Shown: positions 16,795-30,802, counted from the first letter of the stretch. The stretch: DNA of 64,000 nucleotides from an uncultured Chlamydiae bacterium (GCA_963828125.1 CAWHDP010000002.1:1344001-1408000); one strand, 5' to 3'. Numbers and translations: made by a program. The notes: generated from the letters alone by a model not told the origin.

Positions 16795-17640
16795 TCACCA
16801 GTTAAAATCTTGTTCATAGCCGAGCTCAATGAGCAGATCTCCGATCTCCTCTTTCACCGCGGTTTTATGTTCCTCTTTAAAATACTCCTTCCATGCACCG
16901 ACTTTCCCTTTGAAAAAACTATACCCTTTTCCAAAGTTCGATTTATATACGTTGTATAGATCCTGATCGGAAATATCGACTTTTAGCGCAGCTGCAATTT
17001 TCTTTAGTTCTCCCAAAGCGTCCAAGTCTGTAGCGGCGCCGCCGTGATTCCCCATCAGCTTGCTGAAATCCAAGGTGCAGCATGCCGGCGAATGGACCCA
17101 ACCCTTGAAATAGAGCGTCTCCCTTCTTAAATCCTTCCGGATCATGAGAAGCAACTTCTCGTCATCCGAAACAATCGACGCTAGCGATGGATCATTCAAA
17201 TGGATGTGTTTATAGTGGTTGAGTAACGATACGATTTGATCTCTTGGATCCCGTTTGATAAAAAAATTGATGCAGCTGTGTTCAAGAAGATAGTTTTCCA
17301 ATGTGACGGTAAAGGGTGCGTGCAAATGCAAGAACGTCCCATTTTTTTCGTTTTTGGCCCAGATCTGATCCATGGTTTTCCGGTTCCAGGGCGCCCGGCC
17401 GCTTGAAAAATAAATATCCTGAGGATCTTCAGTTAAGGTCTTATTCTCCGCTAAAAGTTTCGTCTCCTCTTGATATTTCTTCGCCCAAAAGACCTTCTTC
17501 CCTGTTAACGCAGTCAAAACGGGGATCAGCAAGTGGGTTCCTGTCTTGGGTTCCGTAAATAAAACAAAATTTTCAGACCACAACGATAGATGGACGCAAA
17601 TCGACGCCAATAATAGCGCCTTAAAAAAATTTAAACTCAT
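16795..17640 (-). CDS. PAPS-dependent sulfotransferase with signal-like N-terminus
   Basis: 5'-PSB PKTGT, 3'-PB RDPRDQIVS, C-terminal FKGKVGAWK. Confidence 0.85.
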   Translation of the reverse strand: MSLNFFKALLLASICVHLSLWSENFVLFTEPKTGTHLLIPVLTALTGKKVFWAKKYQEETKLLAENKTLTEDPQDIYFSSGRAPWNRKTMDQIWAKNEKNGTFLHLHAPFTVTLENYLLEHSCINFFIKRDPRDQIVSLLNHYKHIHLNDPSLASIVSDDEKLLLMIRKDLRRETLYFKGWVHSPACCTLDFSKLMGNHGGAATDLDALGELKKIAAALKVDISDQDLYNVYKSNFGKGYSFFKGKVGAWKEYFKEEHKTAVKEEIGDLLIELGYEQDFNW

Positions 17641-17646
17641 ACATTC

Positions 17647-18654
17647 TCACCTTTGTTCTTGTTGAAATTTGAGCATTCTGTGCATGGAGTCGATTTGGAG
17701 GAGTTGATCGGTCATCGAGAACCGAGTTTCGAAAATCCGGTGGGCCTCCTCCGCCATTTTCCACGCCATCTCAGGATCTCTCTGAATGTGGGCCATGTGT
17801 CCCTGGATTTGTCGATAGATTTCCTCTGAGGATTGGCTCGTGTCAACGTAAAACACAGCATCGCCAAATACCTCCTTTACAAAGGCGTTTTGATCCGAGA
17901 TAATCACAGCGGACGCTGCGGCTGCTTCGAAAATCCGCGAGGAGGGGATTTGAAACTTATTGTGGAGAGCAGAATGGAGAACGAGTACAATTCCGTGCCG
18001 TTGATAGGCTTTAATAACGGAAACGCCGTCAAAGCGCAGTTGTCCCATGTATCCGTCTCGAATCAGGTCGGGGTGGTGGTTGACGCCATAAAATTTTGTA
18101 AAGCCGCTTTGGCTGAGAAATTTATAGAGATTTTTATACTTGTCGCTCTTAGAGCGGTTGCTCCAAATAGGGAGGATCGTGGCGAGTTCGTTCAAAGCCA
18201 GTCTCTTGTAATGGATCGGCTGTAGAGTTGGATAAAAGGGTATTGTAGACAGCCGTCTGTTTTTGGACTGGAAGGTTTCGGGTTTGATAGTGAGTAAATA
18301 GGCGTCGTATTTTTCATAGAGGGGCAAGAGATATCCCTCCTCATCAAAAAAGCCAAAGGGGTGCAAGACAGCCATGTAGTTGCCGCAATCCGTTCTCAGG
18401 GGTTCGATATTGGGAATGAGGCAAAGGATCCAATCGAGGCGGTGGACGCGCTGAATGATCTTACCTCTATCTTCATCTAGGAAGACCCTCCAGCCGAGTT
18501 CTTCTGCCGCCCGTTTAATCCGCCATCCCAATTCTCTCTCTCCATAATAACTTTTGTCGCTGACGATTCCGATTGAAGTCACGGCCTGAACGCTGAGCTG
18601 GAGCAGGACGAAAAGAATGAGAAGAGATGGGCGAAGCCGACACATAAAGAACAT
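17647..18654 (-). CDS. GT-B glycosyltransferase (CgeB / Glyco_trans_1_2-like) with signal-like N-terminus
   Basis: PSSRIFEAAAASAVIISD motif; N-terminus ends VQA. Confidence 0.7.
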   Translation of the reverse strand: MFFMCRLRPSLLILFVLLQLSVQAVTSIGIVSDKSYYGERELGWRIKRAAEELGWRVFLDEDRGKIIQRVHRLDWILCLIPNIEPLRTDCGNYMAVLHPFGFFDEEGYLLPLYEKYDAYLLTIKPETFQSKNRRLSTIPFYPTLQPIHYKRLALNELATILPIWSNRSKSDKYKNLYKFLSQSGFTKFYGVNHHPDLIRDGYMGQLRFDGVSVIKAYQRHGIVLVLHSALHNKFQIPSSRIFEAAAASAVIISDQNAFVKEVFGDAVFYVDTSQSSEEIYRQIQGHMAHIQRDPEMAWKMAEEAHRIFETRFSMTDQLLQIDSMHRMLKFQQEQR

Positions 18655-18805
18655 CCCTGACCTGGTTTCCTGAAGGATTCTAGAGATGTATAGAAATTAT
18701 TTCTACAAAAAGTTGAATATGGATCCCATTTTTTTATTTTTTTGAACTGGACATTGGCCAGTTGAATCTGACCAAGATGTGTGGTATACGTCGACGTCCA
18801 AAAGG

Positions 18806-28960: not shown

Positions 28961-28963
28961 TGT

Positions 28964-29923
28964 TTAGGCTCTCTCCTGTTTAGCAGAACGGGTTCGGAAA
29001 AACATCGTCAAGATCGAAACAACGAGAAAAATGAGAATGGCGAGGATTGCACATTTTGAAAGGAGCGGATAGTTCATTTGCTTACAAATGACTGAAATCA
29101 GGCATCCCAATACAGCCAGGCCGAATTGGGTCTTAATTTTCTGATTCTGGACTCTACAAGCGGCGAGGACGCCGATTTTGGTCCCCATACTTGCGCCTAA
29201 AAACATGAGGGAGGCGGCGAGGAAATCGACCCTCCCCTTCATGGCATAGGAAGCGCCGCCGTATAATCCTGAGAGCATGACCTCAAAAAGATCTGTACCG
29301 ACAGCGATGAGGACAGGACAACCCATGAAATAAATCAAAGCGGGCAGGCGAAGAAGTCCTCCGCCGATTCCTAAAAACCCAGCGGCATATCCGGTGACTA
29401 ACCCGATCAGAATCGGGAGCCAGATGGAACAGCGGATGTTCGAGGTTTTGAAGAAGAAAAGAGGGCGAGGGAGAAGGAGATGGAGAGTCTTCGCCCATTT
29501 AACCTCTCCTTGTTTTCGATGGATAAACATGAGGAGAGTGATCAAAGAGAGGAGAATGATATAGACCCAGCGTAAAATCGATTCTACTTTATGAATTTTC
29601 TCGAGATACATCACGGTTTGCGCCCCCGCCTCGATTCCGACCACCGTTCCGATCAACATGAAAAAGGCCATAGGAAAATCTACATTATTCCTTCTGGCGT
29701 GATAGAAAGTTCCAAGCGCTCCTTTGCCTCCCATGTGGGCGATGTCGGTTCCCACGGCATAAGTCATGGGGAACCCGAGAATATTGAGGGCAGGCGTCAC
29801 AAGCCACGCTCCTCCGATGCCTAAAAAGGCGCTGACGACTCCTACGCCGAATCCGAGAAAGATGAGCGTGGGGATGAAAATATCGATATTTGCATAAGGG
29901 AGGGTGATCGTAAGAGAATCCAT
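28964..29923 (-). CDS. TSUP (TauE/SafE) family sulfur-compound transporter
   Basis: Two GIGG(A/G)..P repeats each followed by AVGTD. Confidence 0.88.
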   Translation of the reverse strand: MDSLTITLPYANIDIFIPTLIFLGFGVGVVSAFLGIGGAWLVTPALNILGFPMTYAVGTDIAHMGGKGALGTFYHARRNNVDFPMAFFMLIGTVVGIEAGAQTVMYLEKIHKVESILRWVYIILLSLITLLMFIHRKQGEVKWAKTLHLLLPRPLFFFKTSNIRCSIWLPILIGLVTGYAAGFLGIGGGLLRLPALIYFMGCPVLIAVGTDLFEVMLSGLYGGASYAMKGRVDFLAASLMFLGASMGTKIGVLAACRVQNQKIKTQFGLAVLGCLISVICKQMNYPLLSKCAILAILIFLVVSILTMFFRTRSAKQERA

Positions 29924-29944
29924 TCTGATCCTTTTTGTTTTTAC

Positions 29945-30802
29945 CTATTCAGCCTCGAACGAATGAAGCTCATAACGGCAATTCAGCAGCTCAACCGGCA
30001 GTTCAGGATTGAAATAGGTCGACCACAAACTGAGATTCGAACTCGTCCGAATGAGAAAGTCGCAGTTCGACAAGATGAGAGCATCGAGGAGAGCCTCTTC
30101 TCCGATTGCATAGGGAGATGGCGGTTGAGAGAGGTGAACTGGCATCACTCCGTTTGAGCGATGAGCGTCGTAGGCGATCACGGAGCCGGGGAACGTCTTT
30201 TTCATCTGGCTCAAGAAAGCAGCTTCGTCAGTGGCGACAAAAATCTTGTAGGGCTGATCGGACGGAATGTGGGCAAAGACGGCTCCGATCGCCTCTGCGT
30301 AGGGGACGCGCGGCGCCTCTTTTTCTTTGTCGGTTCCCCGATAGTGGATCCCTAAGACAAAAACATTCTGAAAGTGACGCTCGATAAATTGCGCGGCCTT
30401 TTCGAGGATCGACTGCTGGATATGAATATATTTTTTTACGAGGGCAGAAGCCTGCTCCCGCTTCAGTTGCCATCTGGCATGAATGGCAGCAAACGACCCG
30501 TCCTTGAATCGAGAGGCATTATTTTGAAGTGCGGAGATTTGGAGATGAATCGGCTCGAAGTAATAGTTCCACCAATTCGGGCCGTAATCGGGATCAAAGT
30601 AGAGTCCCGACTGACCAAAATCAACAGCCAGCTCCGAAAAGCCGCTGTAGGCCCCCATTTCATACAAGTGAAGGTGACCCAAAACGACATTGGCACAAGC
30701 AAACATCCCAGGCTCGCGAAGAGGCGAAGCGTCGATGATCAACAACTCGCCCGCCAGCAATCGCAGTGAGAACCCCAGCGCCACTAGATTCCTAAAAATC
30801 AT
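29945..30802 (-). CDS. NodZ/GT23-like fucosyltransferase
   Basis: LGIHYRGTDK, IFVATD, ALLDALILSNCDFLIRTSSNLS; signal-like N-terminus. Confidence 0.75.
   Translation of the reverse strand: MIFRNLVALGFSLRLLAGELLIIDASPLREPGMFACANVVLGHLHLYEMGAYSGFSELAVDFGQSGLYFDPDYGPNWWNYYFEPIHLQISALQNNASRFKDGSFAAIHARWQLKREQASALVKKYIHIQQSILEKAAQFIERHFQNVFVLGIHYRGTDKEKEAPRVPYAEAIGAVFAHIPSDQPYKIFVATDEAAFLSQMKKTFPGSVIAYDAHRSNGVMPVHLSQPPSPYAIGEEALLDALILSNCDFLIRTSSNLSLWSTYFNPELPVELLNCRYELHSFEAE

Follow-up and report, generated by a model that had tools for sequence, protein, structure and literature searches.

Is PAPS completed outside the cytoplasm? A chlamydial sulfation locus whose APS kinase carries an export-type leader

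If a chlamydia carries its own genes for sulfate activation and sulfotransfer, on which side of its inner membrane is the activated sulfate made, and on which side is it used? The question is raised by a locus of about 14 kb (positions 16,795 to 30,802) in a 64,000-nucleotide stretch of DNA, the window, from an uncultured Chlamydiae bacterium (GCA_963828125.1, CAWHDP010000002.1:1344001-1408000). An initial annotation had read this locus, hereafter the block, as an exported glycan sulfation system with its own supply of 3'-phosphoadenosine 5'-phosphosulfate (PAPS). We find that CysC, the kinase of adenosine 5'-phosphosulfate (APS), bears an export-type leader, a feature that the annotation had not singled out. 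The five sulfotransferases and four glycosyltransferases of the block bear such leaders too, and the two subunits of its ATP sulfurylase, CysD and CysN, bear none. For this reason we lean towards a scheme in which APS would be made inside the cell and exported, PAPS being finished and its targets sulfated in the periplasm or the inclusion space. The PAPS supply is thus likely to be split across the inner membrane, rather than wholly cytoplasmic. The genes of the block are these (MFS, major facilitator superfamily):

16795..17640, minus strand: sulfotransferase ST1, of the ST5 family, with leader (PF00685, E 7e-6; 27% identical to ST5)
17647..18654, minus strand: CgeB-like GT-B glycosyltransferase with leader (PF13524, E 5e-9)
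18779..19576, plus strand: GT77-like nucleotide-sugar transferase with DVD motif (PF03407, E 3e-11; leader from about 18806)
19564..20379, plus strand: sulfotransferase ST2, with leader (PF13469, Sulfotransfer_3, E 7e-5, under the cut-off; APRTGSS and RNP motifs)
20308..21531, minus strand: sulfotransferase ST3, of Golgi carbohydrate type, with an extra C-terminal domain and a leader (PF03567, E 2e-7)
21528..22346, minus strand: sulfotransferase ST4, with leader (PF00685, E 5e-7)
22411..23256, minus strand: sulfotransferase ST5, with SULT-like fold and leader (structure model and family profile)
23210..25052, minus strand: tandem GT32-like glycosyltransferase with leader, two GT32-like domains and membrane segments (PF04488)
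25060..25629, minus strand: cysC, APS kinase with leader (TIGR00455, 154 bits; cut-off 138.7)
25661..26845, minus strand: MFS transporter related to SLC37A4 and GlpT, candidate APS exporter (family profile against the PDB)
26845..28074, minus strand: cysN, GTPase subunit of ATP sulfurylase, leaderless (TIGR02034, E 7.5e-79, under the cut-off; GHVDHGKS motif)
28079..28960, minus strand: cysD, small subunit of ATP sulfurylase, leaderless (NF003587, 322 bits, cut-off 195; SVGKDS motif)
28964..29923, minus strand: membrane protein of the TSUP/TauE family, which likely takes up the sulfate used by CysDN (PF01925, E 7e-42)
29945..30802, minus strand: NodZ/GT23-like putative fucosyltransferase with a weak, Sec-like leader; it opens the main run on the minus strand

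How secure is this inventory? The source organism is an environmental chlamydia. The nearest named records to the window's CysC are chlamydial (Simkaniaceae, Neptunochlamydia, Chlamydiae) among the matches listed, and the best DNA matches to the window come from soil metagenomes. All five sulfotransferase open reading frames (ORFs) lie where the annotation had put them. Four pass a Pfam cut-off; the fifth, ST2, stays under that of Sulfotransfer_3 (23.6 against 27). It is matched by our own sulfotransferase hidden Markov model at 8.7e-39, but it was part of the seed of that model. Motifs like 5'-PSB and 3'-PB were found by pattern in four of the five; in ST4 a TPKSG motif was read from the translation. 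All five sulfotransferases that our own profile finds in the genome (2.37 Mb in two contigs, 95.4% complete) sit in the block.

The annotation had also counted five glycosyltransferase genes. CgeB-, GT77-, GT32- and NodZ-like genes are indeed present, but the two GT32-like ORFs are one tandem gene split by an assembly error, so that there are four genes and the count of five is rejected. The window has an extra base at 24601 that is missing from contigs of runs X1 and X2 of one study, X1 being possibly the source of the window DNA, and the gene is a single ORF in an 88%-identical metagenome relative (L138; here and below, G and L handles denote genomes and loci). A role of the GT32 protein as a toxin was likewise rejected: its TcdA/TcdB Pfam match covers 25 residues around the DXD motif, falls under the cut-off and is read as generic similarity. 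The NodZ-like ORF scores 27.5 against Pfam NodZ (E 1.7e-6; cut-off 28.3), matches NodZ 2hhc in the PDB (E 3.6e-6) and contains HYRGTD, an instance of HxRxxD, which we take to be the GDP-fucose-binding motif of NodZ/GT23 fucosyltransferases.

The TSUP-cysD-cysN-MFS-cysC genes are as tightly packed as had been described; family scans confirm them, and the gaps between them run from -1 to 31 bases. From the NodZ-like gene to ST3 the genes follow one another on the minus strand in a single run, -47 to 64 bases apart; the GT77-like and ST2 genes then lie on the plus strand and the CgeB-like and ST1 genes back on the minus strand. The likely starts of cysN (28074, from the upstream sequence) and ST4 (22346) differ from those of the ORF caller (28182 and 22433). 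A scan for promoters and terminators gave no excess over shuffled sequence (15 against 13.1 and 25 against 19.8).

To what use would the PAPS be put? The presence of cysD, cysN, cysC and a TSUP gene would suit assimilatory reduction of sulfate to cysteine. The annotation had noted the absence of cysH and sulfite reductase from the window, and the absence extends to the genome: the sole match to PF01507, the family of the PAPS reductase CysH, is cysD itself, NIR_SIR has no match, and neither cysK nor cysM is found over the cut-off. Nor does the genome hold a detectable Sat-type sulfurylase or anything matching the nucleotidyltransferase domain found in the long kinases described below. PAPS would thus be left without a reductive outlet. 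Moreover, the kinase bears a leader and, in a relative (L139), is fused to a sulfotransferase. We therefore reject the assimilatory role, in spite of the ATP sulfurylase and APS kinase, and regard it as practically ruled out; that PAPS serves sulfation rather than cysteine synthesis, as had been proposed, is supported by the missing reductive branch and by the fusion.

How exceptional are the leaders? They were called by a home-made rule (a basic residue, then an uncharged hydrophobic window) together with reading by eye. The rule flags all ten sulfotransferase, glycosyltransferase and CysC proteins of the block, against 326 of 2016 ORFs in the genome (16%) and 140 of 7002 pseudo-starts at internal methionines (2%). 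By a hand-calculated binomial this has a probability of about 1e-8, a figure that treats clustered genes as independent, which they are not. CysD, CysN, the 11 GT4 proteins located and the window's Suf, Rml and translation proteins all go unflagged. The segments have a positive n-region, an uncharged run of 9-24 residues and mostly small residues at the end, the pattern of Sec export and cleavage by signal peptidase I (SPase I). The NodZ-like leader is the weakest, an arginine breaking its hydrophobic run. The leader-like N-termini noted at the outset are therefore real as a pattern, and we consider export of the proteins that bear them very probable; a site of action outside the cytoplasm is likely for these enzymes, and the comparative data below strengthen that case. 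CysD and CysN, lacking leaders, would be cytoplasmic.

Could the hydrophobic N-termini instead be uncleaved anchors, catalysis facing the cytoplasm, so that the block is a membrane-tethered cysDNC and sulfotransferase island? In free-living bacteria ATP, PAPS and nucleotide sugars are cytoplasmic, the window also holds wza-like and sugar-nucleotide genes, and membrane-bound LpsS offers a precedent. In the work on synechan, Wzx/Wzy repeat units are described as being built and modified on the cytoplasmic side (PMC8205485; here and below, statements from papers cited by PMC number hold for the accessible parts of those papers). Against this stands the combination of basic residues, short hydrophobic core and small terminal residues, which is that of Sec and SPase I substrates; the same style of leader in a Waddlia protein was scored 0.999 by SignalP 6 (PMC13318545). 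Anchoring would also leave unexplained why CysD, CysN and GT4 are leaderless, and why the MFS gene joins cysDN only where the kinase has a leader. We judge it improbable.

Does the leader belong to the kinase itself, and do other kinases have one? In the window's CysC it comprises 17 residues and ends A-N-A, and no ATG, GTG or TTG lies between it and the P-loop. A leader of this type is found in 26 of 120 homologues (the window's own included), all of them at ranks 1-45, and in none at ranks 46-120. An APS kinase match was obtained in 54 of 400 genomes sampled from the phylum, and in only one of 13 genomes of the same genus. Among 160 fetched loci a hydrophobic stretch was recorded at eight, namely four named chlamydial records, two close metagenome loci and two where it falls ahead of the likely start. 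Leaders also occur in the bifunctional PAPS synthase Sat-CysC. Among 32 chlamydial fusions with a complete N-terminus it is present in 23 by the rule and in four more by eye, and missing from five. A database search with one such fusion gave 120 homologues, in 101 of which a hydrophobic leader replaces the usual N-terminus; the named ones belong to Parachlamydia, Chlamydiia, three Dependentiae and one organism labelled Verrucomicrobiota, and the named leaderless ones to Rhodothermia and Bacteroidetes.

A tree of the kinase domain (FastTree, 162 columns, no root inferred) places the leader-bearing forms in two lineages and needs six changes, at least three of them forced by well-supported branches; it excludes three close homologues that are truncated or odd, two of every three leaderless CysC rows, three of every four leader-bearing Sat rows and those chlamydial rows that were broken or cut, and the position of long leaderless rows inside the window's clade is unsure. 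Short kinases of the Sat-CysC lineage that have lost the sulfurylase domain and kept the leader occur in G295 and, less surely, in G131, and the leader-bearing kinase of G366 has a dead sulfurylase domain. At L139, cysN and the MFS gene are followed by a 504-residue fusion of leader, kinase and sulfotransferase.

Do the leaders of kinase and sulfotransferase go together? At all 16 chlamydial kinase loci with a sulfotransferase in the fetched flank, the two agree (11 both with, five both without a leader), the calls being partly by eye and two loci, G337 and G407, having been added by eye. Fisher's test on the 9 + 5 loci before that addition gave p 0.0005, a value overstated owing to kinship. 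A further architecture joins a leader and an APS kinase to a nucleotidyltransferase domain of 130 residues, which weakly matches CTP_transf_like and ATP sulfurylase (L010:17087-18049; P0020, P0022, P0027-P0029, P0031, P0041, P0045), and leaderless versions exist too (P0023). Such a leader-bearing protein is possibly a minimal, fully exported PAPS synthase.

If CysDN is inside and the kinase outside, APS must cross the membrane. By what route? The family profile of the MFS protein finds as its best PDB match SLC37A4, the glucose-6-phosphate/phosphate exchanger of the endoplasmic reticulum (E 3.5e-14), and the invariant arginine of its first transmembrane segment aligns with Arg28 of SLC37A4, which presumably binds phosphate. 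A search of the PDB with the single sequence gave no match, and TIGR00881 scores 49 bits (cut-off 407.75). The gene lies beside cysD or cysN in seven of the eight genomes, among 401, that have cysD. In the exception, G133, the kinase and the sulfotransferases are leaderless, and both cysD and the MFS gene are missing from the four genomes in which the exported kinase includes a nucleotidyltransferase domain of its own. The TSUP gene, too, adjoins cysD in G131 and G133. Export of APS by the MFS protein is, by these associations, slightly the better guess. At one locus (L235:6377-8791, in G301) the same MFS protein shares its open frame with NusB and RsmB domains.

How would the parts work together? 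The TSUP protein would import sulfate, as its family and linkage suggest. CysDN, whose family is plain from profile matches, would form APS, presumably in the cytoplasm, and the GlpT/SLC37-like MFS protein may export it. CysC, sent out through Sec by its visible leader, would then form PAPS with ATP that could come from the host. Exported glycosyltransferases would use nucleotide sugars, of which at least GDP-fucose would probably be host-derived, to construct or lengthen a glycan on the bacterium's own envelope, and the sulfotransferases would sulfate that glycan. The site would be the periplasm or the inclusion rather than the host.

What else in the genome bears on this scheme? The genome has tandem Ndk-like genes, recognized by motif (G000:C1:157638-158654), one encoding a leader and one not, a pattern like that of Waddlia ndk1/ndk2. 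The leader-bearing Ndk beside a leaderless one, the four full-length TLC nucleotide transporters of the genome and the lack of a Gmd over the cut-off support the scheme. The genome lacks a detectable fucose pyrophosphorylase as well, despite its NodZ-like and GT11 genes. An exported phosphatase of PAP (3'-phosphoadenosine 5'-phosphate) was not found with one query, whose sole match is leaderless. Extracytoplasmic removal or recycling of sulfate could fall to a sulfatase-family protein encoded elsewhere in the genome (G000:C2:971960-973753), which has a leader and a CAPSR motif.

What would be sulfated? Sulfuryl transfer from PAPS is the predicted activity of ST1 to ST5. The family profile of ST3 matches HS6ST (E 8.8e-14) and HS2ST (E 2e-8), the 6-O- and 2-O-sulfotransferases of heparan sulfate, and a glycan acceptor is likely for this enzyme. 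ST5, the protein whose fold was examined, gave a structure model (pLDDT 91.7) of the P-loop-like/SULT fold that aligns with SULT7A1 (Z 17.2, root mean square deviation 3.1, 225 residues aligned) and, at Z 13-14, with tyrosylprotein sulfotransferases. Cytosolic small-molecule SULTs also rank first with the profile of the ST5/ST1 family (E 2e-18). The closest homology is therefore of Golgi type for ST3 and not for the ST5/ST1 family, whose acceptors may be small molecules or lipids. Because enzymes of one fold can differ in substrate, a glycan acceptor is likely for only part of the set; that glycans are involved at all strikes us as fairly probable. The single multiply sulfated, possibly fucosylated glycan, or glycosaminoglycan mimic, envisaged in the annotation is not established, ST3 being the only one of Golgi heparan-sulfate type.

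Several points weigh against the scheme of an exported kinase and exported transferases. Free ATP in the periplasm is not established, and export, topology and activity are here predictions from sequence. The leader rule is crude, having falsely flagged two of 12 GT2 proteins. The 16 concordant loci come from relatives that are not independent, their flank lengths differ, and the leaderless calls for G041 and G365 are borderline by score. ST5 models as a cytosolic SULT, and glycan sulfotransferases match it at Z 8-12, far below the SULT value. Of 30 genomes with the MFS gene, 23 have no cysD match, and ten of 16 fetched MFS loci have no cysD or cysN nearby, so the transporter may have another substrate. 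G295 has a leader-bearing kinase and no match to cysD or the MFS gene, a stand-alone Sat not having been searched for there, and L138, 88% identical as it is, has other genes in place of MFS-cysN-cysD upstream of cysC.

A last point concerns sulfotransferases that lack a kinase partner. The ST5 family, with 820 representatives at E up to 1e-10, has a hydrophobic leader in 83 of 95 scoreable representatives (55 of 150 were unscoreable by our script) and a match in 13 of 60 relatives. Five of these 13 genomes, examined with Pfam, gave no APS kinase match; four of the five (86-98% complete) have a leader-bearing sulfotransferase all the same, and in the fifth the protein is cut. Such enzymes would need host PAPS, which points to a space reached by host metabolites, and they are as compatible with a site in the host as with one in the periplasm.

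Might the enzymes, then, pass the envelope altogether by Sec and type II secretion and modify host molecules in the cytosol or secretory compartments, bacterial PAPS supplementing that of the host? The kinase-less genomes just described would be in keeping with this, as would the GspD-like secretin present in the genome, the GDP-fucose pathway not found there, and the resemblance of the ST5 family to small-molecule SULTs. The leader-bearing Ndk2 of Waddlia does reach host compartments, and its leader sends a reporter to the Golgi (PMC13318545). An inner-membrane transporter, however, would release APS into the periplasm first, and the membrane segments of the tandem GT32 would hold that enzyme in the envelope. 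Synthesis of one's own PAPS would be most useful where host PAPS is scarce, and the other leader-bearing glyco-enzymes of this genome adjoin the bacterium's own collagen-like genes. We regard a host-side site as unlikely, if still a serious contender.

Is the block a functional unit? As a conserved one, it is not: no relative examined keeps the 14-kb set together, where the close loci number at least two from metagenomes and at least four from genomes among the matches listed. Nor is it unique in its genome, which has two other islands of leader-bearing glyco-enzymes. The first (G000:C2:1234001-1263000; L219, L220) encodes, mostly with leaders, four GT25, four Methyltransf_24, a GT92 and two STELLO-like proteins, besides two GT2-TPR and three collagen-repeat proteins, and is a candidate for exported machinery that glycosylates collagen-like surface proteins. 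The second (G000:C2:993001-1005000; L218) combines a GT6 (E 1e-44) and a GT11 with GT2 proteins that bear leaders and with several unknowns.

One could accordingly suppose that the enzymes are exported and have no single product, the block being a hotspot patchwork in which SULT-like enzymes would sulfate lipids or small molecules and the glycosyltransferases would work for the other glycan islands of the genome. Transcription runs in three directions within the block, the set is whole in no relative, ST5 has a SULT-like fold, and in several genomes the kinase occupies the recurrent suf-rml-pgeF chromosomal slot without these neighbours. But the genes from NodZ to ST3 form one tightly packed run, the CgeB-ST1 pair is kept in G342 (54% and 59%) and the cysC-GT32 pair in L138, and ST3 resembles heparan-sulfate enzymes. 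We hold a mere patchwork to be quite improbable, and propose instead that the block is one module of a larger exported glyco-enzyme set, a local assembly of parts that relatives combine otherwise.

What surrounds the block? Three neighbouring genes lie on its ST1 side:

13939..14862, plus strand: EamA/DMT transporter, adjacent, found also near the kinase in G342 and G366
15096..15623 (likely start 15192), plus strand: S-adenosylmethionine (SAM) decarboxylase with leader, outside the block (TIGR03330, over the cut-off)
15620..16546, plus strand: leader-bearing protein of predicted protein-kinase-like fold, outside the block, with four paralogues in the genome

The decarboxylase has its leader in G342 and G407 as well, and in G295 leader-bearing ORFs resembling purine nucleoside phosphorylase and acireductone dioxygenase were recognized by eye (L259:6573-7508, 8606-9196). 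The protein of the 15620 ORF has kinase-like motifs, and the best Foldseek match of its model is WbdD (E 7e-5, with a TM score of only 0.36). A PDB search with the single sequence gave no match, one with a profile nothing better than E >0.3, and the protein's nearest Atlas clusters are unnamed and mostly from Chlamydiota. Directly beside the block, at window positions 31282-46229, GC content is lower (40-47%), and the stretch carries transposases from several families together with a RhuM-family gene, a Gp49/HTH pair and one protein each of ankyrin and Schlafen-AlbA type. At 51918-57844 lie a wza-like export gene, two NDP-sugar epimerase/dehydratase genes and a neighbour whose 951-residue product has no Pfam match; they may make a polysaccharide that the block could modify. 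The window further contains LigD primase and ATP-dependent ligase genes (8132-10717), an ORF with a weak, sub-cut-off Peptidase_C58 match (6920-8110) and rpsB-tsf-frr (46501-48734), where no pyrH-sized ORF lies between tsf and frr; the counterparts in G199 and G090 have an intervening gene, read as pyrH.

How does the block compare with known systems? In eukaryotes PAPS is formed in the cytosol or nucleus and reaches the Golgi through SLC35B transporters. As is proposed for the block, Golgi sulfation sets PAPS sulfotransferases and nucleotide-sugar transferases across a membrane, and ST3 is homologous to HS6ST and HS2ST. It differs in that the last PAPS step of the block is apparently exported, so that APS would cross, and in that the leaders look cleavable, unlike type II anchors. 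The Sat-CysC PAPS synthase (NF004040) performs the same chemistry and has a leader in most chlamydial copies; the window's kinase is of a different lineage, has no sulfurylase domain and relies on CysDN.

Rhizobia decorate their Nod factors by means of NodPQ, NodH and NodZ. With that system and LpsS the block shares CysDN-type activation dedicated to sulfotransferases, a NodZ-like enzyme alongside and the lack of a reductive branch (for NodPQ and LpsS, PMC5498481). In the block, by contrast, the kinase stands alone as a protein and has its own export leader, and leaders mark the transferases too; nodABC are not among the window ORFs scanned, no genome-wide search for them having been made. The xss cluster for synechan in Synechocystis similarly groups several sulfotransferases with glycosyltransferases for a sulfated glycan (PMC8205485). 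It has Wzx, Wzy and a co-polymerase and works on the cytoplasmic side (PMC8205485), whereas the block has its own activation genes and leader-bearing enzymes; no flippase, polymerase or co-polymerase is found among the block ORFs, the wza-like gene being about 25 kb away.

Is there precedent for such chemistry outside the cytoplasm? Enterobacterial AstA transfers sulfuryl groups in the periplasm, which it reaches by a signal peptide (PMC13426309). Like other periplasmic bacterial aryl sulfotransferases it is independent of PAPS (PMC13426309), in contrast to the block's enzymes with their PAPS-binding motifs and SULT fold. Among chlamydiae, glycogen enzymes of C. trachomatis (GlgA) use host UDP-glucose in the inclusion lumen and are type III secreted without a signal peptide (PMC4829429), and Waddlia Ndk2, with a leader predicted by SignalP, was reported to be secreted, the leader being needed to exit the inclusion in a heterologous system (PMC13318545). 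These are likewise normally cytoplasmic, nucleotide-using enzymes found outside the chlamydial cytoplasm; neither report, in its accessible parts, concerns sulfate activation or a multi-enzyme glycan pathway (PMC4829429, PMC13318545).

What, then, is new? All parts of the block are members of known families. PAPS chemistry in bacteria is regarded as cytoplasmic; the surprising element is that PAPS synthesis would here be placed outside the cytoplasm, across two phyla. We found no description of exported APS kinases or of chlamydial sulfotransferases in the literature searched, chiefly the main texts of openly accessible papers. As a tentative generalization, to which we give somewhat less than even credence, environmental chlamydiae and Dependentiae may maintain a Golgi-like extracytoplasmic workshop. 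In it, exported glycosyl-, methyl- and sulfotransferases would draw on host ATP, SAM and nucleotide sugars, PAPS would be made on the spot, either by an exported PAPS synthase or by CysDN, an APS exporter and an exported kinase, and the products would be eukaryote-style sulfated surface glycans.

The central claim can be tested cheaply and directly with reporter fusions. If it is true, it points to an APS transporter and to a large family of soluble, export-ready bacterial sulfotransferases, along with the heparan-sulfate-type ST3, that may be useful in glycan engineering. It would also account for the ATP sulfurylase of Babela, which was classed among enzymes whose function is unclear (PMC4378268). 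Above all, should the leaders prove functional, protist-dwelling bacteria of two phyla would make and use PAPS outside their cytoplasm, which implies a space stocked with ATP and nucleotide sugars of the host.

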